A DNA stretch of 31,155 bases from a virus (Duplodnaviria; Heunggongvirae; Uroviricota; Caudoviricetes), in the IMG/VR virus record IMGVR_UViG_3300029473_000204. One strand, written 5' to 3'. Positions 1 through 31,155 of the stretch are shown piece after piece. Every line of letters starts with the position of its first letter. Position 1 is the first letter of the stretch. Below the pieces are notes generated by a model that searched no databases, was not told the origin of the DNA, and was given only the letters and a program-made list of their open reading frames with translations. Position numbers and translations under genes: made by a program.

Positions 1-996
1 TTATGGACGCATTATGGACATTCCTGACACCGGGTTAAGAGTCACAGCATCTTGTAAGAAATCCGGTGCAAAGTGTGCGTAGGTCATAGTTTGCTGAATG
101 TTAGAATGACCCAGGATGCGCTGCAATGTGATTATGTTACCTCCATTCATTATAAAATGTGTGGCAAATGTATGCCTCAAAACATGTACTGCTTGTCCGT
201 CAGGTAAATCGGGTTTTACTTCCCTGAGAGCGTTACGCACTTTGTAGTAACTGGCATTAAAAAGCCTGCCTGAATTTTTGGTCTTGATCCTTTTAATCAG
301 GTCCTGCGAAACGGGAATTGTCCTGCGCTTTCCGTTTTTAGTTTTCATAAACGTAACCATCTGGTTAATGATGTGTTCAGCTTTCAAATTAGACACTTCA
401 CTCCAGCGTCCACCAGTAGAAAGGCAGACCAGAGTTGCATTTAACTCATCACCATCAAGCATGGATAACAGCCGCGTAATCTCTTCACTGGACAAAAAAG
501 CCATTTCTGTAACAGCTTCACGTAACCGCTTAACCTCACGGAACGGGTTGTGAGAGTGGTATTCACCGGCGTCAATTAACTTGGTGAACATCCCGCTCAT
601 TATTGCCAGATGCCGATTTACGCTGGCTGGTTTTAGACCATCGTTCATCATTACAACTCGATAATCAGTTATCGTTTTCTTTGTTAACTGGTCAGCTCTG
701 GACACTCCCATTTCTGCAAATTTGGCGATTATTGTCGTCAAACGCCCCCGTTCAATATTTCCACGCTCATGTGATTTTCCGTGATATATCCACCATCTGC
801 CTAACAACTCTGTAAGAGTTCGGCGGTCGGCTGGCTTCTCCAGCCACTCTTTGTTGTGGTAGTTAACCAGCACATGACGTTCGAATGCTTGAGCTTCACC
901 TTTAGTTTTAAATTTCCGCCTGATACGTTTTCCATCTGCACCCTGCGGTCTGACGTCCACTTCATAACGACCATCATCGAGCTTTTTAATAGACAT
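1..996 (-). CDS. int: Tyrosine integrase (P2 Int family), 331 aa
   Basis: ORF MSIKKLDDGRYEVDVRPQ... ends LRHTFATHF...GHSNIQQTMTYAHFAPDF, the tyrosine-recombinase catalytic region (R...HxxR...Y). ATG at 994-996 on the minus strand. Position at the prophage end next to C and cox matches P2. Confidence 0.9.
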   Translation of the reverse strand: MSIKKLDDGRYEVDVRPQGADGKRIRRKFKTKGEAQAFERHVLVNYHNKEWLEKPADRRTLTELLGRWWIYHGKSHERGNIERGRLTTIIAKFAEMGVSRADQLTKKTITDYRVVMMNDGLKPASVNRHLAIMSGMFTKLIDAGEYHSHNPFREVKRLREAVTEMAFLSSEEITRLLSMLDGDELNATLVCLSTGGRWSEVSNLKAEHIINQMVTFMKTKNGKRRTIPVSQDLIKRIKTKNSGRLFNASYYKVRNALREVKPDLPDGQAVHVLRHTFATHFIMNGGNIITLQRILGHSNIQQTMTYAHFAPDFLQDAVTLNPVSGMSIMRP

Positions 997-1089
997 AAAG
1001 CCCTCCGATGACGCTGTTTACTTCTACTACTTGAAAATTAATGCAATTTTCTTTCGTACATTTACTGCACACATATGCTGAATAAATCG

Positions 1090-1401
1090 TCAGCCAGTCT
1101 TTTGGTCTGAGTGGTGCAAGGTTGTTGAGTCTTGCCCAATGTGCGCGAGCGCCGGGGCTATTTGTCCGCCAGCGGGATCAGTTTCATCAAACATGAACCA
1201 GTCACGGTACTTGCGAAATCTTTCTGGCTTGAAAAATTTCATACCTGCGTCAAAAGACATCTTTACTTTTCCCTGCTCATATCCAGCATAGGTGTTGTAG
1301 TTAATTCCAGTTAATTCAGCAACTTGCTTCCTTGTCATTCTTTCTGATTCCCGAATAAGTGCGAGTTTCTCTGCTTGAGATGTGATTTGTGTATTTGACA
1401 T
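1090..1401 (-). CDS. C: Immunity repressor C (P2 C-like HTH repressor), about 103 aa
   Basis: Translation MSNTQITSQAEKLALIRESERMTRKQVAELTGINYNTYAGYEQGK contains a helix-turn-helix. It is divergent from cox as in P2. I place the start at the internal ATG (1399-1401) rather than the upstream track start at 1449. Confidence 0.8.
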   Translation of the reverse strand: MSNTQITSQAEKLALIRESERMTRKQVAELTGINYNTYAGYEQGKVKMSFDAGMKFFKPERFRKYRDWFMFDETDPAGGQIAPALAHIGQDSTTLHHSDQKTG

Positions 1402-1505
1402 GAATTGTCGTATCTCGTAATTTATGTTGCATGCGACACACCAGAACAACGCAGAGCGGCTTCAAATAGCTCTGGTTGAATGGCACCAAAGTTGAGGATA
1501 TCAAA
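1402..1505. promoter_or_regulatory. C/cox intergenic immunity-switch region (expected Pe/Pc promoters and repressor operators)
   Basis: A roughly 100-bp AT-rich spacer between the divergent C and cox starts. By analogy with the P2 switch; promoter elements and operators were not individually mapped. Confidence 0.4.
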
Positions 1506-1862
1506 ATGAGTATTGGATCAGAAATGAATAACGATGTTGGAGAAAAAGTATCTGATCTCACAAAAAGTAAAAAATGTGACATCAAACTTGCAGCCGCACC
1601 GTCGGATTTGCTCTCGAAAGAGGGTTTTGCTCTTTACATCGGTAAGACGCCTCGCGCTGTTGCTGAAATGGCGAAAGCAGGCAAGTTACCAGCCTTTTAT
1701 ATGACGGACCCATTAAAGCCGGGCGGTCATGCTGAGTTATGGATTAATCGCCGTGAGTGGGACAAGTACGCAGCCCAGCTAGTTGATGAAGCTCCGACAG
1801 AATGGCATGACTGGAAAAATCGCATTAGTTACAGCAAATCAAGACATGGCCGTGCGGCTTAA
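1506..1862 (+). CDS. cox: Cox-like excisionase / repressor of the lysogenic promoter (Cox/Apl family)
   Basis: Segment YIGKTPRAVAEMAKAGKLPAFYMTDP...ELWINRREWD resembles P2 Cox as I recall it. GAGGA ribosome-binding site 7 nt upstream of the ATG at 1506. The longer track ORF from 1476 is probably an upstream extension. Confidence 0.7.
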   Translation: MSIGSEMNNDVGEKVSDLTKSKKCDIKLAAAPSDLLSKEGFALYIGKTPRAVAEMAKAGKLPAFYMTDPLKPGGHAELWINRREWDKYAAQLVDEAPTEWHDWKNRISYSKSRHGRAA

Positions 1863-1872
1863 GGTGGAAAGG

Positions 1873-2043
1873 ATGAACGAGCCTCGTTGTATTGCTCAGT
1901 TATTGCGTAACGAAAGCCCAAGGGCGATTGACTTCACCATTACCCACGGTAAGGGGCGTAAGGGAATCATTATCCGCACCAAAAAACAGAGTCCGTTAAA
2001 GAAGGCTCTGACCTTTCTGAAAAGCCGGAGGGTCTGGAAATGA
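1873..2043 (+). CDS. Small hypothetical early protein (position of P2 orf78)
   Basis: Short ORF with AAGGTGGAAAGG ribosome-binding site just upstream of the ATG at 1873. Its stop overlaps the B start (ATGA at 2040-2043). No recognisable motif. Confidence 0.35.
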   Translation: MNEPRCIAQLLRNESPRAIDFTITHGKGRKGIIIRTKKQSPLKKALTFLKSRRVWK

Positions 2044-2828: not shown

Positions 2829-3130
2829 TGTCCTGTTCTCATTCAGTTGTATTACTGAATAACGCCTTAAAAATCGCTGTTATGAAAAATGGCGATTTAT
2901 CTCTTATTCAACTTGGTCTTGATAAAGAAAAACGCGAAATAACTGAGTCTGTTATCGCGATTTATCAGAACGAATTAAATCTCCTGTCTGATGTGGTCAA
3001 TTTACTTGTTAAACGCGCTGTATTTCACAAGCAAATCTCCTCCGTGGATGAACTGACGAAATTAACGACAGAAATTGCCAGCTATTGCGCTGATGAATTT
3101 AAAAAACTTAACGACAAAAGGAGCTGGTAA
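2825..3130 (+). CDS. Hypothetical early protein (P2 orf81 position)
   Basis: Start overlaps the preceding stop (ATGA). No motif recognised. Confidence 0.55.
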
Positions 3131-3354
3131 TGCCGGACAACGTAGATTTTATTCAGGAACAACAGGCTGAATTACTGGAGCGCCAGATTAACGCGGCAAG
3201 AGTAAAACATTGCGGTGCTTCTGCGCTGGTTTGCGAAGAGTGTGACGCGCCAATACCTGCTGCCCGTCGTGCGGCTTATCCGTCAGCCACGCGTTGTGTT
3301 TCCTGTCAGTCAGTCTTTGAAGCAAAAAACAAACATTACCGGAGAATGGCATGA
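3130..3354 (+). CDS. TraR/DksA-family C4 zinc-finger protein (P2 orf82-like)
   Basis: CEECDAPIP...(17 residues)...CVSCQ gives a four-cysteine zinc finger of the DksA/TraR type, in a 74-aa protein. Confidence 0.7.
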   Translation: MPDNVDFIQEQQAELLERQINAARVKHCGASALVCEECDAPIPAARRAAYPSATRCVSCQSVFEAKNKHYRRMA

Positions 3355-3626
3355 GCATTCGTATTGAAATTGGCGAACGTTATGTCGTTACCAGTGACAG
3401 CTTTCAGTTTATTCTCCACGAGAAAAAGAGAGCGGAAAGCGGTAAAAACGCCGGTCAGGAATGGCTGGCGGTGGTTGGTTATTACCCGAAATTAAGCCAG
3501 CTCGTTTCCGGCCTGATGCATCACGATATTCTGATCGGAAGCGCAAAGTCTTTTGCTGATTTAAACGCGCAGGTTGAGCAACTCAGCAGGCGTTGTTCAG
3601 AGGCTTTTGGCTCATATGGCCGTTAA
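3351..3626 (+). CDS. Hypothetical early protein (P2 orf83 position)
   Basis: ORF coupled to the upstream gene (ATGA overlap). Its 3' end overlaps the A start. Confidence 0.5.
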   Translation: MSIRIEIGERYVVTSDSFQFILHEKKRAESGKNAGQEWLAVVGYYPKLSQLVSGLMHHDILIGSAKSFADLNAQVEQLSRRCSEAFGSYGR

Positions 3627-5739
3627 AGCCTCCGGGCGTTTTGTCCCTCCGTCAGCATTTGCTGCAGGCACCGGTAAGGCGTTTACCGGTGCTTATGCAT
3701 GGAACGCGCCACGCGAGGCCGTCGGGCGCGAAAGACCCCTTACACGTGACGAGATGCGTCAGGTGCAAGGTGTTTTATCCACGATTAACCGCCTGCCTTA
3801 CTTTTTGCGCTCGCTGTTTACTTCACGCTATGACTACATCCGGCGCAATAAAAGCCCGGTGCACGGGTTTTATTTCCTCACATCCACTTTTCAGCGTCGT
3901 TTATGGCCGCGCATTGAGCGTGTGAATCAGCGCCATGAAATGAACACCGACGCGTCGTTACTGTTTCTGGCAGAGCGTGACCACTATGCGCGCCTGCCGG
4001 GAATGAATGACAAGGAGCTGAAAAAGTTTGCTGCCCGTATCTCATCGCAGCTTTTCATGATGTATGAGGAACTCAGCGATGCCTGGGTGGATGCGCATGG
4101 CGAAAAAGAATCGCTGTTTACGGATGAGGCGCAGGCTCACCTCTATGGTCATGTTGCTGGCGCTGCACGTGCTTTCAATATTTCCCCTCTCTACTGGAAA
4201 AAATACCGTAAAGGGCTGATGACCACGAGGCAGGCATATTCTGCCATTGCCCGTCTGTTTAACGATGAGTGGTGGACTCATCAGCTTAAAGGCCAGCGTA
4301 TGCGCTGGCATGAAGCGTTACTGATAGCTGTCGGGGAGGTCAATAAAGACCGTTCTCCTTATGCCAGTAAACACGCTATTCGTGATGTGCGTGCGCGCCG
4401 CCAGGCAAATCTGGAATTTCTTAAATCGTGTGACCTTGAAAACAGGGAAACCGGCGAGCGCATCGACCTTATCAGTAAGGTGATGGGCAGTATTTCTAAT
4501 CCTGAAATTCGCCGGATGGAGCTGATGAACACCATTGCCGGTATTGAGCGTTACGCCGCCGCAGAGGGTGATGTGGGGATGTTTATCACGCTGACCGCGC
4601 CGTCAAAGTATCACCCGACACGTCAGGTCGGAAAAGGCGAAAGTAAAACCGTCCAGCTTAATCACGGCTGGAATGATGAGGCATTCAATCCAAAGGATGC
4701 GCAGCGTTATCTCTGCCGTATCTGGAGCCTGATGCGCACGGCATTCAAGGATAATGATTTACAGGTCTACGGTTTGCGTGTCGTCGAGCCACACCACGAC
4801 GGAACGCCGCACTGGCATATGATGCTTTTTTGTAATCCGCGCCAGCGTAACCAGATTATCGAAATCATGCGTCGCTATGCGCTCAAAGAGGATGGCGACG
4901 AAAGAGGAGCCGCGCGAAACCGTTTTCAGGCAAAACACCTTAATCGGGGCGGTGCTGCGGGATATATCGCGAAATACATTTCAAAAAATATCGACGGCTA
5001 TGCACTGGATGGTCAGCTCGATAACGATACCGGTAAGCCGCTTAAAGATACTGCCGCGGCTGTTACCGCATGGGCGTCAACGTGGCGCATCCCGCAATTT
5101 AAAACGGTTGGACTGCCGACAATGGGGGCTTACCGTGAACTACGCAAATTGCCTCGCGGCGTCAGTATTGCTGATGAGTTTGACGAACGCGTCGAGGCTG
5201 CTCGCGCTGCCGCAGACAGTGGTGATTTTGCGTTGTATATCAGCGCGCAGGGTGGGGCAAATGTCCCGCGCGATTGTCAGACTGTCAGGGTTGCCCGTAG
5301 CCCGTCGGATGATGTTAACGAGTACGAGGAAGAGGTCGAGAGAGTGGTCGGCATTTACGCGCCGCATCTCGGCGCGCGTCATATTCATATCACCAGAACG
5401 ACGAACTGGCGCATTGTGCCGAAAGTTCCGGTCGTTGAGCCTTTGACTTTAAAAAGCGGCATCGCCGCGCCTCGGAGTCCTGTCAATAACTGTGGAAAGC
5501 CTGCCAGCAGTGATACTTCGTTACCGGCTCCCACGCCTTCTGAACATGCCGCAGCAGTGCTTAATCTGGTAGATGACGGTGTTATCGAATGGAGTGACCC
5601 GGAGGTTGTGAGGATTCTAATGGTAGTGTTAAAAGGAGGGGAAGCATACAAAATCAACAACGAAGACGATTATCACCGCAAAGTGCCGAACAAGTCAGCT
5701 CAGTGGCTAAAACAAAGAATAAATAGAGTGGGTAACTAA
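3616..5739 (+). CDS. A: Replication initiator endonuclease A (rolling-circle, HUH-type), about 707 aa
   Basis: N-terminus MAVKASGRFVPPSAF matches the P2 A start as I recall it. GYIAKYISKNIDGY carries the active-site tyrosines and HWHMMLF the metal-binding histidines. The track ORF starts upstream at 3574, so the true start is ambiguous between 3574 and 3616. Confidence 0.85.
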   Translation: MAVKASGRFVPPSAFAAGTGKAFTGAYAWNAPREAVGRERPLTRDEMRQVQGVLSTINRLPYFLRSLFTSRYDYIRRNKSPVHGFYFLTSTFQRRLWPRIERVNQRHEMNTDASLLFLAERDHYARLPGMNDKELKKFAARISSQLFMMYEELSDAWVDAHGEKESLFTDEAQAHLYGHVAGAARAFNISPLYWKKYRKGLMTTRQAYSAIARLFNDEWWTHQLKGQRMRWHEALLIAVGEVNKDRSPYASKHAIRDVRARRQANLEFLKSCDLENRETGERIDLISKVMGSISNPEIRRMELMNTIAGIERYAAAEGDVGMFITLTAPSKYHPTRQVGKGESKTVQLNHGWNDEAFNPKDAQRYLCRIWSLMRTAFKDNDLQVYGLRVVEPHHDGTPHWHMMLFCNPRQRNQIIEIMRRYALKEDGDERGAARNRFQAKHLNRGGAAGYIAKYISKNIDGYALDGQLDNDTGKPLKDTAAAVTAWASTWRIPQFKTVGLPTMGAYRELRKLPRGVSIADEFDERVEAARAAADSGDFALYISAQGGANVPRDCQTVRVARSPSDDVNEYEEEVERVVGIYAPHLGARHIHITRTTNWRIVPKVPVVEPLTLKSGIAAPRSPVNNCGKPASSDTSLPAPTPSEHAAAVLNLVDDGVIEWSDPEVVRILMVVLKGGEAYKINNEDDYHRKVPNKSAQWLKQRINRVGN

Positions 5740-5870
5740 ACTCGCTTTGTTTTAGTTTGTGAATATATGAGACTGGACGCTGAAACCTGACGAGTAGGTT
5801 TGTGAGAATGATGATCTATTTGCATTGAGATAATATGTTAAGTTATAGGCTCTTTCTGCGTTAGTGCACT

Positions 5871-5897
5871 TCCCCCCCCAACCGTAGCAGGGGGAGG
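5871..5897. terminator. GC hairpin between convergent genes A and the defence operon (possible bidirectional terminator)
   Basis: CCCCCCCC-aaccgtagca-GGGGGAGG stem-loop in the gap between the two convergent genes. No clear T-tract, so this is weak. Confidence 0.25.
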
Positions 5898-5904
5898 TAA
5901 AGGG

Positions 5905-6759
5905 TTAAGCAAATCTTAATATTTCTTTAGGTATGGGAGTTGCACAAGCTAATCTTCGTCTTTCTAACATTAAAGGATCCTTAGTAATTTTCAAATTATT
6001 ATTGACGGATAAATGTGATTTTAAGGATGACAACCAGAGCTTAATGAACTCAAAGACATATTTACCCTTAATGGCTCTTTCGTACGGTAATTCATTGAAG
6101 AATGAAATCAATGCTTTTACATCCTCTGAGTCTTCATTTACTTCATAATCTATTAACGTAGCATTATCCTTGATTGAGATATTTTTATACTCAATATTGA
6201 TAACTGAAGATATTTTATTGTAGAATCTTGTTTTCCCGTTTGCATTATGATTTACAAATAGAGGTCGGCACAATTCTTTTGCTAACTTTTGAAATAGTTG
6301 GAAGTCGGACTCAAAATCTTTTTTGATACGCGCCAATAAATCAGACTGTGTTATATCCATTTTGAACTCGTCCTTTAAATAGCTTTTTGTAGAGGAAGAG
6401 TTAATAATATAGTTTTCAATTGAATAACATGAAAGAGTAACAATGTTATCAGAATTATGCTCAAATAGGTCAAAGTCATGATCTACAAAAAAGTAGCAAT
6501 TGCTTAATATTTCTTGATCATTATGTTGAATTGCATGCTCGTATAACTCAATTATCTGTTTTTTTCCTTTCGCCACAAGGTGGCCTGCATTAGCATACTC
6601 TGGATTGTGTTTCATCCATTCATCGTATACAGGGTAATCATCAACACCTTCAAAAACAAAAATTTTATCGAAGGATGATGTTTTAAGTAATATCTCTTGC
6701 TTTAACGGATTTCTCGAAAAAGCTTCTTTTTTCATAGTATGTAGGAGATTGTTACTCAT
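5905..6759 (-). CDS. TOPRIM-like putative nuclease effector (DUF4435/AriB-like or RloB/AbiLii-like), 284 aa
   Basis: Translation has an acidic glutamate (KIFVFEGVDD) followed about 55 residues later by a DxD motif (FFVDHDFD), the arrangement of TOPRIM catalytic residues. No cysteine or histidine clusters, which argues against an HNH fold. Start overlaps the ATPase stop by 1 nt. AT-rich. Confidence 0.6.
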   Translation of the reverse strand: MSNNLLHTMKKEAFSRNPLKQEILLKTSSFDKIFVFEGVDDYPVYDEWMKHNPEYANAGHLVAKGKKQIIELYEHAIQHNDQEILSNCYFFVDHDFDLFEHNSDNIVTLSCYSIENYIINSSSTKSYLKDEFKMDITQSDLLARIKKDFESDFQLFQKLAKELCRPLFVNHNANGKTRFYNKISSVINIEYKNISIKDNATLIDYEVNEDSEDVKALISFFNELPYERAIKGKYVFEFIKLWLSSLKSHLSVNNNLKITKDPLMLERRRLACATPIPKEILRFA

Positions 6760-8225
6760 CAGACACTACCCTTTCGTACTTTCATAGCAGTTGCATAAGG
6801 GTCTAGCTCATTGTCAAATATGAATGGTGAATGCGTTATGGCAATTATTTGCCTAACATTTTCACCCGCATTCAAATCTGGTAATATCATCCGTTGCCAC
6901 TCTATCGATAACGAAAGTTCCGGTTCATCTATTAATATTATTTTAGGGGTATTATCATTAAGATAAATCGTAGCCATTAGCGAAATTACTTGTTTCTCAC
7001 CTGAAGATAAGTCATTAAGAGAGATGCGATCTCCTGTATATGTATCTTTTACGATAACTTCTAATCTTTGAGGATCAAATTTTAGAGATTTAGAATCACC
7101 TGCTGATGAAAGATATTTATCACAAACAGCAACGAATTTCTCAATTTTTGACTCTTGCTCTTTTGTTTCTTGTATAACCGAGTTTAATTGAGTTAAAAAA
7201 TATTTCAAGTAAGTGATGTTTTTTATTTCATCTTTGTTATATAGCAATTTAAGTGAATCAATTAAAGATTTCTTTTTTGATTCAGATGCTCTTTTTTCTC
7301 GCAAATTTGTACCAGTATCCTCAACTCGATTAAGGAATCTTTCCAAATCCTCTATAGAAGGTAGTGCATTTTGTTCTTTAGCTATCCGCTCATTGTTACC
7401 ATATTTAATTAAATCCTCAAGCATTTTGGCACTTAAAGATCTATAGCCAAGGTTTGATGTCCTTTCAATTTCTAAAGTTAGACCTTTTAAAGCATCTTCG
7501 ACATCCTTTAACCCATATGAAATGCCATCACGTTGTAGTTTCATCCCTCTTTTTCTACCAAACATGCGAGGGTGAAGATTTTCTCTTTCTTCCCTAGGTG
7601 TCGTCTCAAAACTTTTTTCTACCCTTCGATATGTTGGTAGAAATATAACGTCTAAATCCCTAAGCGCTTCAGCAACCACTCTAAAATTATTATTTTTAGA
7701 GTAATGCATTTTTAAATTATGCTGTTCCTTATTCTTCATTTTATTAACTATGTTGTCTTTTAGTTCTCTTAGAAAATGATTTATATAATCCTTTGGGTAT
7801 TTTACGGTATTATATAGGTCATTGACTAAAGCATCATCATTGAATTCATTTTGCTTCGAGTCAATTAAAGTCTTCGCAAACTTGGTAATATCACGATCAT
7901 CCCAAAATGACTCATTAAGAGAAAATCTTTCATTGAGGAATGCTTTTATTTCACCAAAAGGTATTAAAGATGCTCTTTCATTTTTAATTTCAACCTCCTC
8001 ATGATCAAGAATCTTTATGAATATTGATTTAAAATCAATTCTCATAAGGTTTGTAAAATCTTGCTCGAGAAGAAGTCTTATAGCATTAAGTATGGTTGTT
8101 TTTCCTGCGCCGTTCTCGGATACGAAAACTGTTGTCTTGCCTTTCATTTTCATAGTTATATCTTTATAACCATGAACTCCTGTCATTCTAAAATATTCAA
8201 TCGGGTAATTATTACGTGTAGTCAT
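6759..8225 (-). CDS. ABC-type (AAA_15/AAA_21, OLD/SMC-like) ATPase, candidate defence sensor (AriA-like or AbiLi-like), 488 aa
   Basis: Walker A VSENGAGKTTILNAIR near the N-terminus, a long charged helical insert, then ABC signature LSSGEKQ, Walker B ILIDEPELSLS and H-loop IAITHSP near the C-terminus. AAAGGAG ribosome-binding site 6 nt upstream of the ATG at 8225. Confidence 0.7.
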   Translation of the reverse strand: MTTRNNYPIEYFRMTGVHGYKDITMKMKGKTTVFVSENGAGKTTILNAIRLLLEQDFTNLMRIDFKSIFIKILDHEEVEIKNERASLIPFGEIKAFLNERFSLNESFWDDRDITKFAKTLIDSKQNEFNDDALVNDLYNTVKYPKDYINHFLRELKDNIVNKMKNKEQHNLKMHYSKNNNFRVVAEALRDLDVIFLPTYRRVEKSFETTPREERENLHPRMFGRKRGMKLQRDGISYGLKDVEDALKGLTLEIERTSNLGYRSLSAKMLEDLIKYGNNERIAKEQNALPSIEDLERFLNRVEDTGTNLREKRASESKKKSLIDSLKLLYNKDEIKNITYLKYFLTQLNSVIQETKEQESKIEKFVAVCDKYLSSAGDSKSLKFDPQRLEVIVKDTYTGDRISLNDLSSGEKQVISLMATIYLNDNTPKIILIDEPELSLSIEWQRMILPDLNAGENVRQIIAITHSPFIFDNELDPYATAMKVRKGSV

Positions 8226-8439
8226 TATGTCTCCTTTCGTCTACATTACTAAAATCAGTTAGTCAATTTTCTTAAAAACTAAAGTAACAGAAGCTTTCGA
8301 TATATTTGAACAGCTAATTCATACAGCAAAGTCAAACTTAATTCAACTATCCATCAGGCGGTGCACGATTCGTACAGCGCAACCCACAGTTGATTCAACT
8401 CGGATTATAATAATTGCAGATATTTTTTGCGATTTCCAG

Positions 8440-9100
8440 TGGCTACTAGCCATTTTATTGTGATCCCTAAACCACCTCCTGGGGAGGTGGTGATTGATCC
8501 TGTAAGGCTATAGCCTGAAGAATGCCCATGTCGGAATATCTCTGCTTACTCACCACAAGTAAAAGGAGACAAACTGACATGGGGTTTTACAGAAGTTCAT
8601 CATATGTATATTGGCGTTGCAAATATCACATAGTCTGGACGGCAAAGTACCGTTTTAGGATCCTGAGGGATAAATTGGGCAAGGAGCTGTACAGAACCAT
8701 CTATATTCTTTGCGGAATAAAAGATTGTGAGGTTCTGGAGTTAAATGTACAGGCAGATCATGTGCATCTTGTCGTAATAGTGCCGCCAAAAATCTCAATA
8801 TCTACTCTGATGGGGCACCTGAAAGGTCGCAGTGCAATCAGACTCTACAATCGATTCCCGCATATCAGGAAGAAGTTATGGGGAAACCATTTTTGGTCGT
8901 GGGGTTACTTTGTTGATACGGTAGGCGTGAACGAAGAAATTATCAGACGATATGCGAGGTATCAGGAAAAGATGGAGCAAACACATGAACAGCAGATGGA
9001 GTTGCTAGAGTAGAAAACGGAATATGACATTCGCCCCCCTTATAGGGGGCATTCTGAAAAGCCACCTCCTCAGGAGGTGGTCTTTTACTTCTACTGTGTT
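8440..9100 (+). mobile_element. IS200/IS605-family insertion sequence (IS200-like); boundaries approximate
   Basis: A Y1-transposase gene is flanked by near-identical perfect hairpins CCACCTCC-tgg-GGAGGTGG (about 8477-8495) and CCACCTCC-tca-GGAGGTGG (about 9061-9079), plus a CCCCCC-ttata-GGGGG hairpin at about 9045-9060. Exact ends cannot be fixed without a reference copy. Confidence 0.6.
8579..9013 (+). CDS. tnpA: IS200/IS605-family transposase TnpA (HUH Y1 transposase), about 144 aa
   Basis: WRCKYHIVWTAKYR near the N-terminus, HUH motif HVHLVV, and a C-terminal tyrosine region RRYARYQ. AAAAGGAGA ribosome-binding site before the ATG at 8579. The track ORF from 8522 is an upstream extension. 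Confidence 0.8.
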   Translation: MGFYRSSSYVYWRCKYHIVWTAKYRFRILRDKLGKELYRTIYILCGIKDCEVLELNVQADHVHLVVIVPPKISISTLMGHLKGRSAIRLYNRFPHIRKKLWGNHFWSWGYFVDTVGVNEEIIRRYARYQEKMEQTHEQQMELLE

Positions 9101-9213
9101 TGATGCATGAATTTGCATTCGAGTTTTTCTGAGCGTTGCCTTGTCAGTTGTAGGTCTTGTGGGGTTGGGGTGGCCTAATGCAACTGCATTATTAGCGCCC
9201 TATGAAGCGGGCG

Positions 9214-9232
9214 GGCGAGGCGGGGAAAGCAC
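9214..9232. other. cos: cos site (19-nt cohesive-end sequence of P2-like phages)
   Basis: Exact string GGCGAGGCGGGGAAAGCAC, which I recall as the P2 cohesive end, about 170 bp from the end of Q. The flanking GC-rich sequence resembles the P2 genome termini. Confidence 0.75.
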
Positions 9233-9401
9233 TGCGCGCTGGCGGTGGTGCTGATTTTATTTTTTCAGCGTCTGAGCGCGTCGTGATGGCGTTTAGATTG
9301 TTAGCCGGGGCGTTGGTGTGTCTGCGGGCTGTTTTGTGCGGTGGTGAGCGTGTGAGGGCGTGATGGCGGGTTGTAAAAAAGCCGCCCGCAGGCGGCGATG
9401 T

Positions 9402-18582: not shown

Positions 18583-18648
18583 TTGTGCCATTCCTGACAC
18601 CTCATCGTCACATTGCCGCCGGTATGACCCGGCGGCATCCTTCCCGTT

Positions 18649-19284
18649 ATGAACACTCTCGCAAATATCCAGGAACTCGCGCGCGCACTGCGCAACATGA
18701 TTCGCACCGGCCTTGTTGTCGAAACCAACCTTAACGCCGGTCGCTGCCGTGTGCAGACCGGCGGCATGTGCACCGACTGGCTTCAGTGGCTGACCCATCG
18801 CGCCGGACGTTCGCGCACATGGTGGGCACCTTCCGTGGGGGAGCAGGTGCTGATTCTGGCCGTGGGCGGTGAACTCGACACGGCGTTCGTTCTGCCGGGG
18901 ATTTATTCCGGCGATAACCCTCCGCCGTCTGCGTCGGCGGATGCCCTGCATATCCGTTTCCCTGACGGGGCGGTGATTGAGTATGAACCTGAAACCAGTG
19001 CACTGACGGTAAGCGGAATTAAAACGGCCAGCGTGACGGCTTCTGATTCTGTTACCGCCACGGTGCCGGTGGTCACGGTGAAAGCGTCAACCCGTGTCAC
19101 CCTGGACACACCGGAAGTGGTCTGCACTAACAAACTGACTACCGGCACGCTGGAAGTGCAGAAGGGCGGAACGATGCACGGCAACATTGAACATACCGGT
19201 GGTGAACTCTCATCAAACGGTAAGGTACTGCATACCCATAAACACCCCGGCGACAGCGGCGGCACAACCGGGGGACCTCTATGA
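18649..19284 (+). CDS. V: Baseplate spike protein V, 211 aa
   Basis: 211 aa, the same as P2 V. Confidence 0.85.
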   Translation: MNTLANIQELARALRNMIRTGLVVETNLNAGRCRVQTGGMCTDWLQWLTHRAGRSRTWWAPSVGEQVLILAVGGELDTAFVLPGIYSGDNPPPSASADALHIRFPDGAVIEYEPETSALTVSGIKTASVTASDSVTATVPVVTVKASTRVTLDTPEVVCTNKLTTGTLEVQKGGTMHGNIEHTGGELSSNGKVLHTHKHPGDSGGTTGGPL

Positions 19285-20541: not shown

Positions 20542-21145
20542 TTCGCGCCTGCTGCCGACCGGCTCATCACCGCTTGAAGTCGCCGCCGCAAGAGCCTGTG
20601 CGGAAATTGAAAAAACGCCGGTCAGTATTCGTGAGCTGTGGAACCCGGATACCTGTCCGGCAAATCTGCTGCCGTGGCTGGCGTGGTCATTTTCGGTTGA
20701 CCGCTGGGATGATAAGTGGCCGGAAGCGACAAAACGCGCTGTTATCCGCGATGCGTATTTCATTCACTGCCATAAGGGCACTATTGGTGCGATTCGCCGT
20801 GTGGTGGAGCCGCTCGGCTATCTGATTGAGGTGAGGGAGTGGTGGCAGCTCAACGAGGAGCCGGGGACGTTCCGTATCGTTGTTGGCGTGCTTGAGCAGG
20901 GTATTACCGAAGAAATGTATCAGGAGCTGGAGCGTCTCGTTGCTGATGCAAAACCGGCAAGCCGCCATCTGACGGGACTGGCTATCAGTTTAAGTACAAC
21001 CGGCAACATTTTTGCCGGTGCGGGATGCTATCACGGTGACGCCCTGACGGTTTATCCCTACACCCCGGAGGCCATTATTGTCGGAGGGGATTATTTCCCG
21101 GCCTCGGCCATTCATTTAATTGATAACCTGAGAGTAAACGCATGA
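20534..21145 (+). CDS. I: Baseplate/tail-fibre attachment protein I, 203 aa
   Basis: N-terminus MSDSRLLPTGSSPLEVAAA matches P2 I as I recall it. Somewhat longer than P2 I (about 176 aa). Confidence 0.8.
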   Translation: MSDSRLLPTGSSPLEVAAARACAEIEKTPVSIRELWNPDTCPANLLPWLAWSFSVDRWDDKWPEATKRAVIRDAYFIHCHKGTIGAIRRVVEPLGYLIEVREWWQLNEEPGTFRIVVGVLEQGITEEMYQELERLVADAKPASRHLTGLAISLSTTGNIFAGAGCYHGDALTVYPYTPEAIIVGGDYFPASAIHLIDNLRVNA

Positions 21146-22317
21146 CAGTGAAATACTACGCCATTCTGACTAATCAGGGCGCAGCACGGCTGGCTAACGC
21201 GACGATGCTCGGCAGTAAGCTGAATCTGACGCAAATGGCCGTTGGTGATGCGAATGGTGTCTTGCCGACCCCAGACCCGGCACAGACAAAACTGATTAAC
21301 CAGAAACGCATCGCGCCGCTGAATCTTCTGAGTGTTGACCCGAACAACCAGAGCCAGATTATTGCGGAGCAAATCATCCCTGAGAACGAGGGCGGATTCT
21401 GGATCCGTGAGATTGGGCTTTATGATGATGAAGGCGTACTCATTGCGGTGGCGAACTGCCCGGAAACGTACAAACCGCAGTTGCAGGAAGGCAGTGGTCG
21501 TACCCAGACTATCCGCATGATTCTGGTTGTCACGAATACCGAAGCCATCACGCTGAAAATCGACCCGTCGGTGGTACTGGCGACCCGTAAATACGTGGAT
21601 GATGAAGTCCTGGAATTAAAGCTGTATGTGGATGACCAGATGAGGAACCACATTGCCGCACAGGATCCTCATACCCAGTATGCGCAGAAACATAATCCGA
21701 CATTTACCGGAGAACCAAAAGCGCCGACGCCTGCCGCAGGAAATAACACCACGCGGATTGCGACTACTGCGTTTGTTCAGGCCGCTATTACCGCTCTGAT
21801 TAACGGTGCGCCAGCCACGCTGGACACACTGAAAGAAATTGCCGCGGCCATTAACAATGACCCGAAATTCAGCACCACCATTAACAATGCGCTGTCAGGT
21901 AAGCAGCCACTGGATGAGACGCTGACTCATTTGAGTGGAAAGGATGTTGCCGGTCTTCTCGCATACCTTGGTTTGGGAGAATTATCTCTGGCTGGCACTG
22001 CATCGGGTGTCATTGGCCTGAATGGGTATGTAACGATCCCGTTAATTATTTCAGGTTCCCGGAGAACACTGATTATTCAGTGGGGGCAGGCGAGATTTGG
22101 TGGGTCTGGTGGTGAAGATGCCGGATATCTTAACGATTTTCCTTTTGCCTTTCCGTCAGCATGTTATGGAATGATAGTTAGTCATGTGGGGCATACACCT
22201 TCAGGCGCAGGAATCCTGTCGGCTTCTGCAATTACATCAAATCAGTTCCGCGGTTTTTCAAGCATAGCGACTGCTGCAAACGCTGTATTAGGTCGTTATA
22301 TCGCTATAGGGGTGTAA
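21142..22317 (+). CDS. H: Tail fibre protein H, 391 aa; the C-terminal roughly 112 aa lie inside the invertible segment
   Basis: N-terminus MTVKYYAILTNQGAARLANA is the conserved P2 H N-terminal region. It is much shorter than P2 H (669 aa), and the C-terminal region is AT-richer and downstream of the crossover site. Confidence 0.85.
   Translation: MTVKYYAILTNQGAARLANATMLGSKLNLTQMAVGDANGVLPTPDPAQTKLINQKRIAPLNLLSVDPNNQSQIIAEQIIPENEGGFWIREIGLYDDEGVLIAVANCPETYKPQLQEGSGRTQTIRMILVVTNTEAITLKIDPSVVLATRKYVDDEVLELKLYVDDQMRNHIAAQDPHTQYAQKHNPTFTGEPKAPTPAAGNNTTRIATTAFVQAAITALINGAPATLDTLKEIAAAINNDPKFSTTINNALSGKQPLDETLTHLSGKDVAGLLAYLGLGELSLAGTASGVIGLNGYVTIPLIISGSRRTLIIQWGQARFGGSGGEDAGYLNDFPFAFPSACYGMIVSHVGHTPSGAGILSASAITSNQFRGFSSIATAANAVLGRYIAIGV
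21956..21981. repeat. Left crossover site for the DNA invertase (hix/gix-like), inside H
   Basis: TTCTCGCATACCTTGGTTTGGGAGAA. Its last 14 nt (TTGGTTTGGGAGAA, 21968-21981) are the exact reverse complement of 23819-23832, and it encodes LGLGE at the constant/variable junction of H. Confidence 0.65.
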
Positions 22318-22318
22318 T

Positions 22319-22756
22319 ATGTTTTATAGTCCATCTTTAAACATTTTTGTGAATCCTGCACTTAAGGATGATTACATTAATGCAAATTCATGGCCAGATG
22401 ATGCTCTGGCTGTCAGTGACGATGTTTATAATGAATTTGCAATAAATACGCCCCCAGATGGCAAAATTCGTGTTGCAGGAGAAAATGGATTACCCACATG
22501 GGCACTAATACCTTCACCATCACATGAAGAACTTATTCAACAGGCAGAATCAGAAAGGCAATTATTGCTTAATCAGGCCAACGAATACATGAACAGTAAA
22601 CAATGGCCCGGTAAAGCCGCTATTGGTCGTCTGAAAGACGAGGAACTGGCGCAATATAATTTGTGGCTGGATTACCTGGACGCACTGGAGCTGGTTGATA
22701 CCTCCAGTGTGCCAGATATTGAATGGCCTACGCCTCCGGCAGTTCAGGCCAGATGA
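22319..22756 (+). CDS. G: Tail fibre assembly chaperone (Tfa; P2 G equivalent), 145 aa
   Basis: Immediately after H. C-terminus LWLDYLDALELVDTSSVPDIEWPTPP is typical of Tfa chaperones. Confidence 0.8.
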   Translation: MFYSPSLNIFVNPALKDDYINANSWPDDALAVSDDVYNEFAINTPPDGKIRVAGENGLPTWALIPSPSHEELIQQAESERQLLLNQANEYMNSKQWPGKAAIGRLKDEELAQYNLWLDYLDALELVDTSSVPDIEWPTPPAVQAR

Positions 22757-23330
22757 CATCCGGCGCTGTGCTGGTATCTGTTGCCGTCACCGCGTCAATG
22801 TAATCCAGCACAGTGTTAAGTCGGGTGGTCTCTGCCTGCATCAGCTTCCGCCCGGCCTGCAATTTAAGTTGAATCAGACTAATGGAAGCCATTGCAGTAT
22901 TAATCAGTGACTGACGCTGTACTTCTGCCGCGTCTACTGCGGCGCTATGCTGTGCCTCAGTATCGGTCACCCATTTCTTACCATCCCATTTATCGAATGG
23001 CGTTAACGGGGCGATAGTGGTTGTATTTTCAGGATAATCACCCGGAGCTGTGATTTCTTTGGCGTCTCCCGTTTCGGTTTTATAGACGATTTCACCGCGA
23101 TGGTCTGGCACATATTCCCATGAGTTAAAATCTGCAGAACGGCAGATTGCATAACCAGCTTTATGTGTAACTGGTGCATCTAAACAAGAACATGCCGGGA
23201 TACCGACGCCAACCGCAAGATATTCAGTTGATGTGGAAATATATTCCCGCGTTTCACCATCATAATTATAAATGGTAATGTCTCCCGCTTTTATGGCAAT
23301 GAGTTCGTTATTTAATACGGCTTTATTCAT
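22728..23330 (-). CDS. Alternative tail fibre assembly chaperone (Tfa'), inverted orientation, 200 aa
   Basis: C-terminus NTVLDYIDAVTATDTSTAPDVIWPELPEA is a Tfa-type tail. It converges on, and overlaps by 29 bp, the plus-strand tfa. Confidence 0.75.
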   Translation of the reverse strand: MNKAVLNNELIAIKAGDITIYNYDGETREYISTSTEYLAVGVGIPACSCLDAPVTHKAGYAICRSADFNSWEYVPDHRGEIVYKTETGDAKEITAPGDYPENTTTIAPLTPFDKWDGKKWVTDTEAQHSAAVDAAEVQRQSLINTAMASISLIQLKLQAGRKLMQAETTRLNTVLDYIDAVTATDTSTAPDVIWPELPEA

Positions 23331-23872
23331 CAGGCAGCCCTCACGATATAGTTAAATGCAATATTCCGTGGACGGGTTTCATTTATCCCATATGCTGTTG
23401 TTCTCTGATTCCCGACAAAATATCCATTTGGATTAGAAGATACAGAATAATCATCAAAATCAAGTGGGCTATCAGCACCCGGCGTCAGGCTTGCAATATA
23501 TCCTCTTCCCATAACTTCTGATGCTGGTATTTCTTTTGTACGATAATCACTAACTCTGAAGAGCTGCCCTTGGTGGGTGTGTGATTCCACTCCTCCATTC
23601 TGAAGACTTAGCAAGGCACGTACAGCATCAATACCACGCCCGTCATCCCAGCCACGAATAAACTCACCACGTAAATCAGGCAATTTATTTGTCGGATAAG
23701 CCTTTGCCAGTTCCGGGTATTCTTCAGCAGAAAAAGCGGCACCGTTGCATTTCAGCCAGCCTGTTGGCGGAGTGGCTGAAGGCCACGGAACAGGCACCCC
23801 AACCGGTAATGCAGAGCCTTCTCCCAAACCAACGTTTATGAAAATGCAGAGATAACGGGCAAGTGGCATCAT
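23330..23872 (-). CDS. Alternative tail fibre C-terminal (receptor-binding) cassette, currently silent; the first roughly 18 codons of the track ORF are probably not translated
   Basis: Minus-strand ORF with no promoter or ribosome-binding-site context. The right crossover site lies inside its 5' end, encoding the same GLGE junction in inverted orientation. Inversion would fuse residues GSALPVGVPVPWPSATPPTGW... to the constant part of H. Confidence 0.65.
   Translation of the reverse strand: MMPLARYLCIFINVGLGEGSALPVGVPVPWPSATPPTGWLKCNGAAFSAEEYPELAKAYPTNKLPDLRGEFIRGWDDGRGIDAVRALLSLQNGGVESHTHQGQLFRVSDYRTKEIPASEVMGRGYIASLTPGADSPLDFDDYSVSSNPNGYFVGNQRTTAYGINETRPRNIAFNYIVRAA
23819..23844. repeat. 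Right crossover site for the DNA invertase (hix/gix-like)
   Basis: TTCTCCCAAACCAACGTTTATGAAAA resembles the hixL/gix consensus (TTCTTGAAAACCAAGGTTTTTGATAA as I recall it), with imperfect dyad symmetry. It is the inverted partner of 21956-21981. Confidence 0.65.
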
Positions 23873-23899
23873 CTCCGGTTTTTATTCAGGGGGGTGCTC

Positions 23900-24493
23900 A
23901 TGCTTATTGGCTATGTACGCGTATCAACAAATGACCAGAACACGGAATTGCAGCGTAACGCGCTGGAGTGCGCGGGATGTGAGCGGATTTTTGAGGACAA
24001 AATCAGCGGCACGAAGTCCGACAGGCCGGGACTGAAAAAACTGCTCAGGACATTATCGGAGGGGGATACACTGGTAGTCTGGAAGCTGGACCGGCTGGGA
24101 CGTAGTATGCGGCATCTGGTCATTCTGGTTGAGGAGCTGCGCGAACGCGGCATTAATTTTCGCAGCCTGACGGATGCCATTGATACCAGCACGCCGATGG
24201 GACGTTTTTTCTTTCATGTGATGGGTGCCCTGGCTGAAATGGAGCGAGAACTCATTGTCGAGCGGACACGCGCCGGACTGGAAGCGGCCAGAGCCAAAGG
24301 GCGTATTGGTGGCAGACGTCCGAAGCTCACCGCGAGTGAGTGGGAACAGGCAGGACGGTTGCTGGCTGCGGGTGAATCACGTCAACGCGTGGCGCTGATT
24401 TTTGATATTGGCCTGTCCACGCTCTATAAAAAATTCCCCTCATCAGCGGCAAAGAATAAATTGTGTCATCCCTTAGCCAACCGGGACAAATAG
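23900..24493 (+). CDS. Serine recombinase, DNA invertase of the Hin/Gin/Cin/Pin family, about 197 aa
   Basis: N-terminus MLIGYVRVSTNDQNTELQ carries the catalytic serine motif of resolvase/invertase enzymes; GRRPKL and a C-terminal HTH follow. It lies directly next to the crossover site. The track start at 23894 is a GTG two codons upstream. Confidence 0.85.
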   Translation: MLIGYVRVSTNDQNTELQRNALECAGCERIFEDKISGTKSDRPGLKKLLRTLSEGDTLVVWKLDRLGRSMRHLVILVEELRERGINFRSLTDAIDTSTPMGRFFFHVMGALAEMERELIVERTRAGLEAARAKGRIGGRRPKLTASEWEQAGRLLAAGESRQRVALIFDIGLSTLYKKFPSSAAKNKLCHPLANRDK

Positions 24494-29692: not shown

Positions 29693-30855
29693 TGCTGGAT
29701 GCGCTGACATTTGATGCAGGCAGTACGCTGACGCCGGATTACATGCTGATGCTCGACAGCAGGGATATTACCGGCAATATCAGCGACCGTCTGATGAGCA
29801 TGACCCTGACGGATAACCGGGGCTTTGAGGCTGATCAGCTTGATATTGAACTGAACGATGCCGACGGGCAGGTCGAACTGCCGGTTCGTGGCGCTGTCCT
29901 GACGGTGTATATCGGCTGGAAAGGTTTTGCCCTGGTATGCAAAGGGAAATTCACCGTTGATGAGGTAGAACACCGGGGCGCGCCGGATGTGGTCACCATC
30001 CGGGCCCGGAGTGCAGATTTTCGCGGGACGCTCAATTCCCGCCGGGAAGGCTCATGGCATGACACCACGCTCGGTGCGATTGTTGAGGCGATAGCCTCCC
30101 GTAACAGGCTGGAAGCCAGTGTCGCTCCGTCACTGGCCGGAATTAAAATCCCGCACATCGACCAGTCGCAGGAGTCTGATGCGAAATTTCTGACCCGCCT
30201 TGCTGAACGCAACGGCGGTGAGGTGTCGGTAAAAATGGGAAAACTGTTGTTTCTCAAAGCGGGGCAGGGGGTGACGGCCAGCGGTAAAAAAATCCCGCAG
30301 ATTACCATCACCCGCAGCGACGGCGACCGTCATCATTTTGCGATTGCTGACCGTGGAGCCTACACCGGTGTAACGGCAAAATGGCTACACACTAAAGACC
30401 CGAAGCCTCAAAAGCAGAAGGTAAAACTGAAACGCAAAAAGAAAGAAAAACACCTGCGCGCACTGGAGCACCCCAAAGCGAAACCGGTCACGCAGAAGAA
30501 AGCGCCAAAAGTACCGGAAGCGCGCGAAGGTGAATACATGGCCGGTGAGGCTGACAATGTTTTTGCCCTGACCACGGTATATGCCACGAAAGCGCAGGCC
30601 ATGCGCGCCGCTCAGGCGAAGTGGGATAAACTGCAACGGGGCGTTGCGGAGTTCTCCATCATCCTGGCTACCGGTCGTGCAGATATTTACACGGAAACGC
30701 CGGTCAAAGTGTCAGGCTTTAAGCGCGTCATAGACGAGCAGGACTGGACAATCACTAAGGTGACACATTTTCTGAATAATAGTGGCTTCACGACGTCCTT
30801 GGAGCTTGAGGTCAGGCTTTCTGATGTGGAGTACGAAACAGAAGATGATGAGTGA
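29692..30855 (+). CDS. D: Tail protein D (late control gene D), 387 aa
   Basis: 387 aa, the same as P2 D. Lysine-rich internal stretch. Confidence 0.85.
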   Translation: MLDALTFDAGSTLTPDYMLMLDSRDITGNISDRLMSMTLTDNRGFEADQLDIELNDADGQVELPVRGAVLTVYIGWKGFALVCKGKFTVDEVEHRGAPDVVTIRARSADFRGTLNSRREGSWHDTTLGAIVEAIASRNRLEASVAPSLAGIKIPHIDQSQESDAKFLTRLAERNGGEVSVKMGKLLFLKAGQGVTASGKKIPQITITRSDGDRHHFAIADRGAYTGVTAKWLHTKDPKPQKQKVKLKRKKKEKHLRALEHPKAKPVTQKKAPKVPEAREGEYMAGEADNVFALTTVYATKAQAMRAAQAKWDKLQRGVAEFSIILATGRADIYTETPVKVSGFKRVIDEQDWTITKVTHFLNNSGFTTSLELEVRLSDVEYETEDDE

Positions 30856-30936: not shown

Positions 30937-31155
30937 ATGTTTCATTGTCCTTTATGCCAGCATGCCGCACATGCGCGTACAAGCCGCTATATCACTGACA
31001 CGACAAAAGAGCGTTATCACCAGTGCCAGAACGTGAATTGCAGCGCCACGTTCATCACTTATGAGTCGGTACAGAGATACATCGTGAAGCCGGGAGAAGT
31101 CCACGCCGTGAGGCCGCACCCGTTGCCGTCAGGGCAGCAAATTATGTGGATGTAA
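30937..31155 (+). CDS. ogr: Ogr, zinc-finger late-gene transcriptional activator, 72 aa
   Basis: MFHCPLCQHAAHARTSRYIT...CQNVNCSATF gives a CxxC...CxxxxC zinc finger, 72 aa as in P2 Ogr. ATG at 30937. The track ORF from 30874 is an upstream extension. Confidence 0.85.
   Translation: MFHCPLCQHAAHARTSRYITDTTKERYHQCQNVNCSATFITYESVQRYIVKPGEVHAVRPHPLPSGQQIMWM

Follow-up and report, generated by a model that had tools for sequence, protein, structure and literature searches.

What is the AT-rich island that lies between replication gene A and an insertion sequence (IS) in a P2-like prophage, how far does the cassette around it reach, and does its composition tell when it arrived? The prophage in question makes up the whole of IMG/VR virus record IMGVR_UViG_3300029473_000204, a stretch of 31,155 nucleotides (nt) that is called the window here and that runs from the integrase gene int (22-996) to ogr (30937-31152). 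An earlier note, made from the letters alone, had described positions 5740-8440 as an AT-rich stretch that holds two defence genes and is consistent with a horizontally acquired cargo cassette. The analysis identifies this island as the probable coding core of a PARIS-type abortive-infection system (genes ariA and ariB), carried as lysogenic-conversion cargo in the hotspot that P2-like phages hold between the replication origin (ori) and the cohesive-end site (cos), a reading to which a probability of about 0.82 is given.

The compositional claim was borne out. The guanine-plus-cytosine (GC) content of the island was 0.328, compared with 0.516 for the whole window and 0.537 outside 5614-9177, a clear drop against the rest of the prophage, and the distributions in 500-bp sliding windows showed no overlap: every window inside the island (n = 44; mean 0.321, maximum 0.352) fell below every window outside it (n = 533; mean 0.538, standard deviation 0.050, minimum 0.412), the island mean being about 4.4 standard deviations low. 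Maximum-likelihood segmentation with two breakpoints gave a low-GC block spanning 5708-8811 (log-likelihood gain 220), and the right edge of this block extends into the IS, which is of intermediate GC. Codon usage likewise set the two genes apart from the P2 core genes. GC at third codon positions was 0.24 in ariA and 0.29 in ariB, against 0.54-0.72 in nine P2 core genes (B was lower, at 0.40), and rare codons, by a set of our own choice for Escherichia coli (AGA, AGG, ATA, CTA, CGA, CGG, CCC and GGA), made up 12.5% of ariA and 7.7% of ariB but 0.7-4.2% of P2 core genes. The proposed edges were good to within 17 bp of real features, namely the stop codon of A at 5739 and the start of the IS at 8457 (placed at 8440 in the note). 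Both defence genes fall inside, as does the Shine-Dalgarno sequence of ariA, while ariB starts at the overlap of the two genes at 6759.

The reading of the two genes as a defence pair also holds, and the pair can be named. The PARIS detection rule of Rousset et al. 2022 (PMC9122126) asks for AAA_15 at 32 bits or more, or AAA_21 at 27 bits or more, adjoining DUF4435 at 27 bits or more. The scores obtained were 63.8 bits (AAA_15) and 62.4 bits (AAA_21) for ariA and 52.9 bits (DUF4435) for ariB, so that the rule picks out the pair, and the best PADLOC matches were AriA (E 2e-31) and AriB (E 4e-18). The genes are intact and translationally coupled, the stop codon of ariA overlapping the start of ariB by 1 nt (TGATG). 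AriA matched the solved AriA chain 8ux9_B by phmmer (E 3.5e-12), an alignment in which its DEPE motif falls on the Walker B motif of the E. coli B185 protein. The ABC ATPase motifs of AriA (K39/E393 in B185) are all present and invariant in 51 homologs: Walker A GAGKTT (K42), signature LSSGEKQ (406-412), Walker B ILIDEPE (D433/E434) and H465. In AriB, the Toprim acidic constellation (E26, D30, D88, E90 and E122 in B185) is represented by E37, D41, D93, D95 and E115, each of them invariant or conserved to 90% or more among 38 homologs; the correspondence is drawn from motif order and spacing and from the PARIS-1 alignment rather than from direct alignment with B185.

Predicted structures agreed with this assignment. 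The AlphaFold2 model of AriB had a pLDDT of 92, and its only significant Foldseek matches in the PDB were the AriB chains 8v46_D and 8ux9_A (E 4-6e-6, probability 1.0, TM ~0.5). For the AriA model (pLDDT 77), the top 15 matches were all AriA chains, with E down to 3.5e-13 and TM 0.5-0.6, the next family, retron PtuA, following at 2.6e-8. Both folds therefore match the solved AriA and AriB, at low identity (14-18%) and with moderate TM-scores. Residues 201-238 of AriA are a low-confidence, Arg/Lys-rich part of the model, reminiscent of the disordered positive pore loops tied to trigger binding in PMC11464382, a likeness that might be no more than analogy.

Both genes are under strong purifying selection. 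Across the pair, the ratio of nonsynonymous to synonymous substitution rates (dN/dS) was 0.03-0.10 (ariB 0.06-0.08) in comparisons with the copies from Klebsiella, Serratia, a Citrobacter-type phage and Enterobacter, and because of these values ariA and ariB are judged to be functional coding genes.

Three known systems help to place the pair. Its closest tested relative is PARIS-1, from a P4-like satellite hotspot of E. coli O42 (PMC9122126): both consist of an AAA_15/AAA_21 ATPase gene with a DUF4435 gene, beside the cos of a P2/P4-family element. The AriB proteins share 27% identity over 248 amino acids (aa; E 5e-22) and the Toprim motifs FVFEG.DDY, FFVD.D, Y.IEN and GKYV, and two fragments of PARIS-1 AriA were 52% (81 aa) and 43% (49 aa) identical to the window protein. 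PARIS-1 differs in being carried by a satellite, not by a helper phage, and the two systems remain divergent in sequence. By structure, both proteins are best matched by PARIS-2 of E. coli B185 (8UX9, 8V45-8V49; PMC11464382, PMC12409363), which has the same two-protein architecture and the same ATPase and Toprim catalytic residues, but identity in structural alignments is only 14-18%, with TM ~0.5, and the window lineage lies near PARIS-1, a long way from B185. The third is the P2 old-tin locus, which occupies the same slot from A/ori to cos, with the same leftward gene orientation, and Old has the same ABC-ATPase and Toprim chemistry; P2 Old, however, is a single fused polypeptide, whereas the ATPase and nuclease of the window are separate genes.

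The locus is already catalogued. Tables S5A/S5B of Rousset et al. 2022 (PMC9122126) list this arrangement at the P2 hotspot as WP_042815548, WP_001297422 and WP_001297419, which are the proteins of E. coli B7A, and system 149 of Table S5B, with 13 occurrences, is labelled PARIS and has an AriB one residue off that of the window. The arrangement was not among the systems tested experimentally in that study (PMC9122126). The island is, in this sense, an ordinary feature that had been read correctly. The features of the locus are collected in the table.

Table. Features of the cargo slot and its flanks (window positions;. = no strand assigned; E = E-value)
Feature	Position	Strand	Evidence or remark
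Replication gene A (Phage_GPA)	3616-5739	+	Pfam Phage_GPA, E 3e-123
Left junction segment	5614-5904	.	New 3' end of A, 5614-5739, GC 0.39; A-ariB intergenic DNA, 5740-5904, GC 0.44
ariB, DUF4435 Toprim nuclease, 284 aa, predicted effector	5905-6759	-	PADLOC, Pfam, Foldseek
ariA, ABC-type (AAA_15/AAA_21) ATPase, 488 aa, predicted sensor and scaffold	6759-8225	-	PADLOC, Pfam, phmmer, Foldseek
ariA upstream region, GC 0.35	8226-8456	-	Shine-Dalgarno AAGGAG at 8231-8236
IS200/IS605-family IS, 625 bp, GC 0.44	8457-9081	+	Pfam Y1_Tnp, E 2e-37
tnpA	8579-9013	+	PGAP start; longest open reading frame starts at 8522
Rest of cargo-side spacer	9082-9177	.	Contiguous with 8226-8456 before IS insertion
Right hotspot edge	9178-9232	.	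Conserved cos-proximal DNA from 9178-9185; 19-nt cohesive-end sequence 9214-9232

Phage P2 itself (NC_001895) carries orf91, tin and old between A and cos, within the gpA-gpQ hotspot defined by Rousset et al. 2022 (PMC9122126). All three are absent from the cargo slot of the window, and unrelated cargo stands between the same conserved flanks in other P2-like phages. The variable cargo between A and cos/Q that marks the P2-like defence hotspot was found here too, which upholds the placing of the island at a known variable locus; the slot runs from replication gene A to cos and the portal gene Q. The island does hold cargo of this slot, but the foreign DNA is wider than its AT-rich part. By blastn, homology to P2, E. 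coli 4/4 and phage pro483 stops at 5611-5613 and resumes at 9178-9185, leaving 3564 bp of non-P2 DNA (5614-9177, GC 0.354) with its left junction inside the open reading frame of A. The left junction segment contains a terminator-like hairpin at 5721-5752, and homology to the cassette of a Klebsiella pneumoniae P2-like prophage (L007, GCA_054801955.1) ends within it, at 5882. As to its origin, blastn matches were confined to the three complete E. coli genomes that carry the locus; no convincing small open reading frame was seen in 5614-5904, and no Rfam family was found across the entire window.

On the right, 9082-9177 aligned with positions 6115-6273 of L007, within a match spanning window 9083-9239, and had no homology to P2, E. 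coli 4/4 or pro483. Homology to the latter two resumes at 9178/9179, and in the blastn comparison with P2, 9185-9232 corresponds to 33546-33593 and 9214 onward to P2 position 1 onward. The right junction lies about 36 bp before the cohesive-end sequence; cosL and cosR are annotated in the P2 record NC_001895. Just downstream of Q, on the minus strand, a GC-rich hairpin with a T-run (9381-9396) corresponds to the P2 tQ terminator, and would protect cos and ariAB against transcription running on from the late P-Q operon, whose direction is the same.

The left junction has rewritten the end of A. Codons 1-673 (to 5634) are P2-like, with 97% identity in one frame (tblastn with P2 A), while the last 34 codons (~5635-5736) of this 707-aa version are unrelated to P2 A, so that the junction replaces the last 88 codons of the P2 gene. 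Beyond this point, the alignment shows that the A proteins of P2, E. coli 4/4 and pro483 share a related tail, 50-88 residues long. Mapped through the ungapped alignment of P2 27419-30031 with window 3001-5613, the ori nick of P2 (annotated at 29892) falls at ~5474 in the window, 139 bp before the junction. PGAP labels A a pseudogene in all three E. coli genomes with this allele (GN4143, B7A and GZ2408C). L014, a Citrobacter-type P2-like prophage carrying the same cargo, encodes an A of 673 aa, conserved only to ...SPVNNCGK, just past the nick, and at the DNA level it matches the window no further than 5500. Because the A of this prophage is conserved only that far, the tail of A after ori appears to be part of the variable region, and the pseudogene label may be too strict, reflecting no more than natural variation of the post-ori tail.

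The IS had been taken as the right edge of the island. It does adjoin the island but is a later insertion into the upstream region of the cassette, not its boundary. A Y1 transposase gene, subterminal hairpins (8470-8492 and 9062-9081) and discrete ends place it in the IS200/IS605 family. Copies covering at least 80% of the element were found in 28 E. coli genomes, and 15 copies among the matches listed spanned query positions 1-625 or 2-625. The K. pneumoniae prophage has the empty site, with window 8456/8459 joined directly to 9082/9083, and because of this IS-free site the element can be delimited to the 625 bp at 8457-9081 and is judged here to have inserted after the cassette was in place. 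It lies 231 bp upstream of ariA, with its transcription directed away from that gene.

The locus was found in only three of 5426 complete E. coli genomes (GN4143, B7A and GZ2408C), but the pair is distributed more widely. Homologs of AriB formed 56 clusters across Enterobacterales and Aeromonas, and ariA and ariB were kept together in all 10 of the related contexts examined. Among phages, these contexts were the P2-like hotspots of Klebsiella and of the Citrobacter-type phage, and a 186-like Yersinia prophage where the pair lies beside int; chromosomal copies occurred in Serratia and Enterobacter and, in K. variicola, beside colicin, microcin and HEPN genes; others were in Burkholderia and Xanthomonas loci. 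The L007 copy shared 86.6% nucleotide identity with the window from 8459 to 5882, its AriA and AriB being 92% and 87% identical, while the AriA of the chromosomal copies of Serratia and Enterobacter was 86% identical to that of the window and that of the Citrobacter-type phage 79%. Repeated transfer is implied because identities do not track genomic context. Since the same pair occurs in several prophage and chromosomal contexts, ariAB behaves as a mobile cassette, passing as one piece among prophage hotspots and chromosomal sites in Enterobacterales, and its description as horizontally acquired cargo is supported. The whole allele, from the altered A through ariBA and the IS to cos, has travelled as well. 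In the flanks of the carrier prophages (L020-L022), GN4143 has a 331-aa integrase beside pflA, like the window, and B7A and GZ2408C have a 337-aa integrase beside yegR/yegS; because the integrases differ and two attachment sites are involved, the allele has moved between P2-like backbones, by modular recombination, since the IS inserted.

Two of these copies show damage. In GZ2408C (L006 4718-5537), an IS1 lies at the ariA/ariB junction, the annotated ariB is shortened at its 5' end and the genes are uncoupled, so the system in this strain is probably inactivated by IS1. In the K. pneumoniae copy (L007 6115-10250), the L-to-P genes, cos and ariAB are kept and no Q is called, though there is space for one; about 1.4 kb past ariB the host gene yegS is reached, with no A, int or other prophage gene called between. 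It looks like a decayed prophage that kept its defence cassette.

How such a system would work can be sketched from B185, where the AriA scaffold sequesters AriB, the phage protein Ocr frees AriB, and AriB cleaves tRNA-Lys, tRNA-Thr and tRNA-Asn (PMC11464382, PMC12409363). By analogy, in a lysogen of the present prophage the ATP-dependent AriA scaffold would hold AriB sequestered until a protein of an infecting phage, for example an anti-restriction DNA mimic, bound AriA and set AriB free. Free AriB would then dimerise and cut the anticodon stem-loops of host tRNAs, and translation would halt and the infection abort. Complex formation, triggered release and tRNA cleavage have been shown only for B185 (PMC11464382, PMC12409363), and a defence phenotype for PARIS-1 (PMC9122126). 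PARIS comprises 11 clades, and the AriA regions lining the trigger-binding pores show little conservation from clade to clade (PMC11464382), for which reason trigger and tRNA specificity should not be transferred from B185 to this lineage.

Several points weigh against the identification of the island as a working PARIS system. AriB is only 14-17% identical to the structurally characterised AriB of B185, and a phmmer search of AriB against solved structures returned nothing even at E 10; only profile matches (Pfam, PADLOC), the fold search and the relation to PARIS-1 link it to these structures. With global TM-scores of ~0.5, the arrangement of domains may differ, and the defence function of this lineage is a prediction from homology. 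The carrier may not be a viable phage, given its truncated A and the PGAP pseudogene call, and tblastn found no member of the AriB lineage among the isolated phages of INPHARED (nor any of the lineage among PLSDB plasmids). Expression of ariAB from the prophage is assumed, with no promoter identified, and PARIS-1, which protects against phages, was active only from an inducible promoter (PMC9122126). A consensus scan of the minus strand of 8226-8456 detected no sigma-70-like site of at least 9/12, and the counts of promoter-like matches in this region were no greater than in shuffles.

The earlier note had presumed a promoter upstream of 8225, at about 8226-8440. This region does lie in the island, but a promoter could not be located in it. 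By eye, only candidates of the 8/12 type were seen, such as TTGAAT and ATGAAT spaced by 17/18 nt at ~8346-8318; these are conserved in Klebsiella, and no promoter is claimed. The stretch 8226-8456 as a whole is 87% identical to the corresponding region of the Klebsiella prophage, but beyond ~8240 there is no conservation in the Serratia, Citrobacter-type and Yersinia copies, similarity starting about 15 nt before the ATG. A promoter of ariA is still presumed to lie upstream because of the analogy with P2, in which the old-tin transcript starts 44-46 nt upstream of old (NC_001895 annotation).

Some of these same points would fit a decaying remnant, that is, a replication-defective prophage whose cassette is silent or being lost. 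The missing end of A and its pseudogene label, the IS1 at the ariA/ariB junction of GZ2408C, the lack of an A-to-int arm around the Klebsiella copy, the absence of the lineage from isolated phages and the failure to find a promoter can all be read in this way. Yet both reading frames are intact, retain every motif and have a low dN/dS; the remaining P2 core genes of the window all have their full length (82-100% identity); the 673-aa A of the Citrobacter-type prophage with the same cargo indicates that the tail of A is naturally variable; and the presence of the same allele with different integrases, at pflA and at yegR/yegS, indicates spread since the IS insertion. Decay is considered an unlikely account of the locus.

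Less likely still is that the low GC reflects a recent transfer from a low-GC donor, the cassette having been brought in by the adjacent IS. A sharp drop of 20 points with foreign codon usage, an IS adjoining ariAB and a locus so rare in complete E. coli genomes are what such an event might leave behind. However, in seven Enterobacterales loci the cassette keeps to a GC of 0.32-0.34 whatever the flanks, which vary between 0.40 and 0.67, while synonymous sites between the copies are saturated (synonymous divergence, dS, 0.4 to >2), and the distant homologs of Burkholderia and Xanthomonas, with GC 0.46-0.47, are likewise about 12 points below their flanks. AT-richness is common to all eight related cassettes examined, and it does not show recent transfer. 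Because it is shared by all of them despite saturated synonymous divergence, the low GC is a long-standing property, not the mark or date of a recent arrival. As for the IS, Y1 transposases of the IS200/IS605 family are known to mobilise only DNA between their own hairpin ends, which counts against delivery of a neighbouring cassette; the ends of this element are precise, and at least 28 genomes carry independent copies elsewhere. In the Klebsiella and Citrobacter-type prophages the same slot contains the cassette but no IS, and delivery by the IS was rejected on these IS-free sites.

That the pair belongs to some other ABC-ATPase defence system, such as Septu (PtuA/PtuB), Gabija or an OLD-family nuclease like P2 old, is most improbable: the ATPase does match many PtuA profiles (best 8e-23) and, more weakly, GajA, its fold matches retron-associated PtuA chains (E ~1e-8 to 1e-6), and the AriB model has weak matches to the C-terminal Toprim region of OLD and to GajA (E 0.1-0.5), but AriA and AriB came out best in all comparisons, whether of sequence, profile or fold, with a lead of about 5 orders of magnitude in the fold searches. 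Septu was rejected in that the partner is DUF4435 with no match to the HNH of PtuB and the PtuA profiles score below AriA; OLD and GajA were rejected in that ATPase and Toprim are separate proteins encoded by two reading frames, no helicase gene (the UvrD-type GajB) occurs in 5614-9177, and the fold matches are not significant.

A broader proposal can be made, though a doubtful one. The left bound of cargo swaps at the hotspot would be the ori nick and not the end of A, each swap rewriting the C-terminal 90-130 residues of A; the allele formed by the altered A, ariBA, IS200 and cos would since have moved between backbones; and the low GC of the cassette would be a trait maintained by selection instead of a leftover of transfer. 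Were this true, possible reasons for keeping a low GC would be silencing by H-NS or a codon usage rich in Lys, Asn and Ile, and the latter would tie the translation of the system itself to tRNAs that it may attack.

The rest of the prophage is closely related to P2. Protein identity was 94-100% for B, orf80-83, Q, P, O, N, M, L, X, Y, K, lysA/B, R, S, V, W, J, FI, FII, E, T, U, D and ogr, and lower for I (82%) and the tail-fibre protein H (~42%). Apart from the cargo slot between A and cos, the regions unlike P2 are the int/C/cox module and the tail-fibre region, and orf30 is absent. The products of int, C and cox (window 1-2040) share 35-53% identity with those of P2 and represent a different immunity and integration module, with an integrase of 331 aa; orf30 is missing between S and V (18584-18649). 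A second stretch of lower GC (0.42-0.50) occurs at 21142-24493, the place of fun(Z) in P2. Its contents are a tail-fibre gene (21142-22317) and an assembly gene (22319-22756), followed by an alternative set in the opposite orientation (Caudo_TAP at 22728-23330 and Collar at 23330-23872) and a serine invertase gene (23894-24493; Resolvase and HTH_7). Inverted repeats of 26 nt at 21956-21981 and 23819-23844 resemble the crossover sites of the Gin, Cin and Hin invertases, and the region has the look of a host-range switch that works by inversion.

The island adds one more case of defence genes carried by a prophage at the P2 hotspot, and is of little importance beyond correct annotation. The two genes would be better annotated as ariA and ariB (PARIS, PARIS-1-like lineage) than as 'AAA family ATPase' and 'DUF4435 protein', and the lineage is a reasonable candidate source of new PARIS triggers and tRNA specificities.

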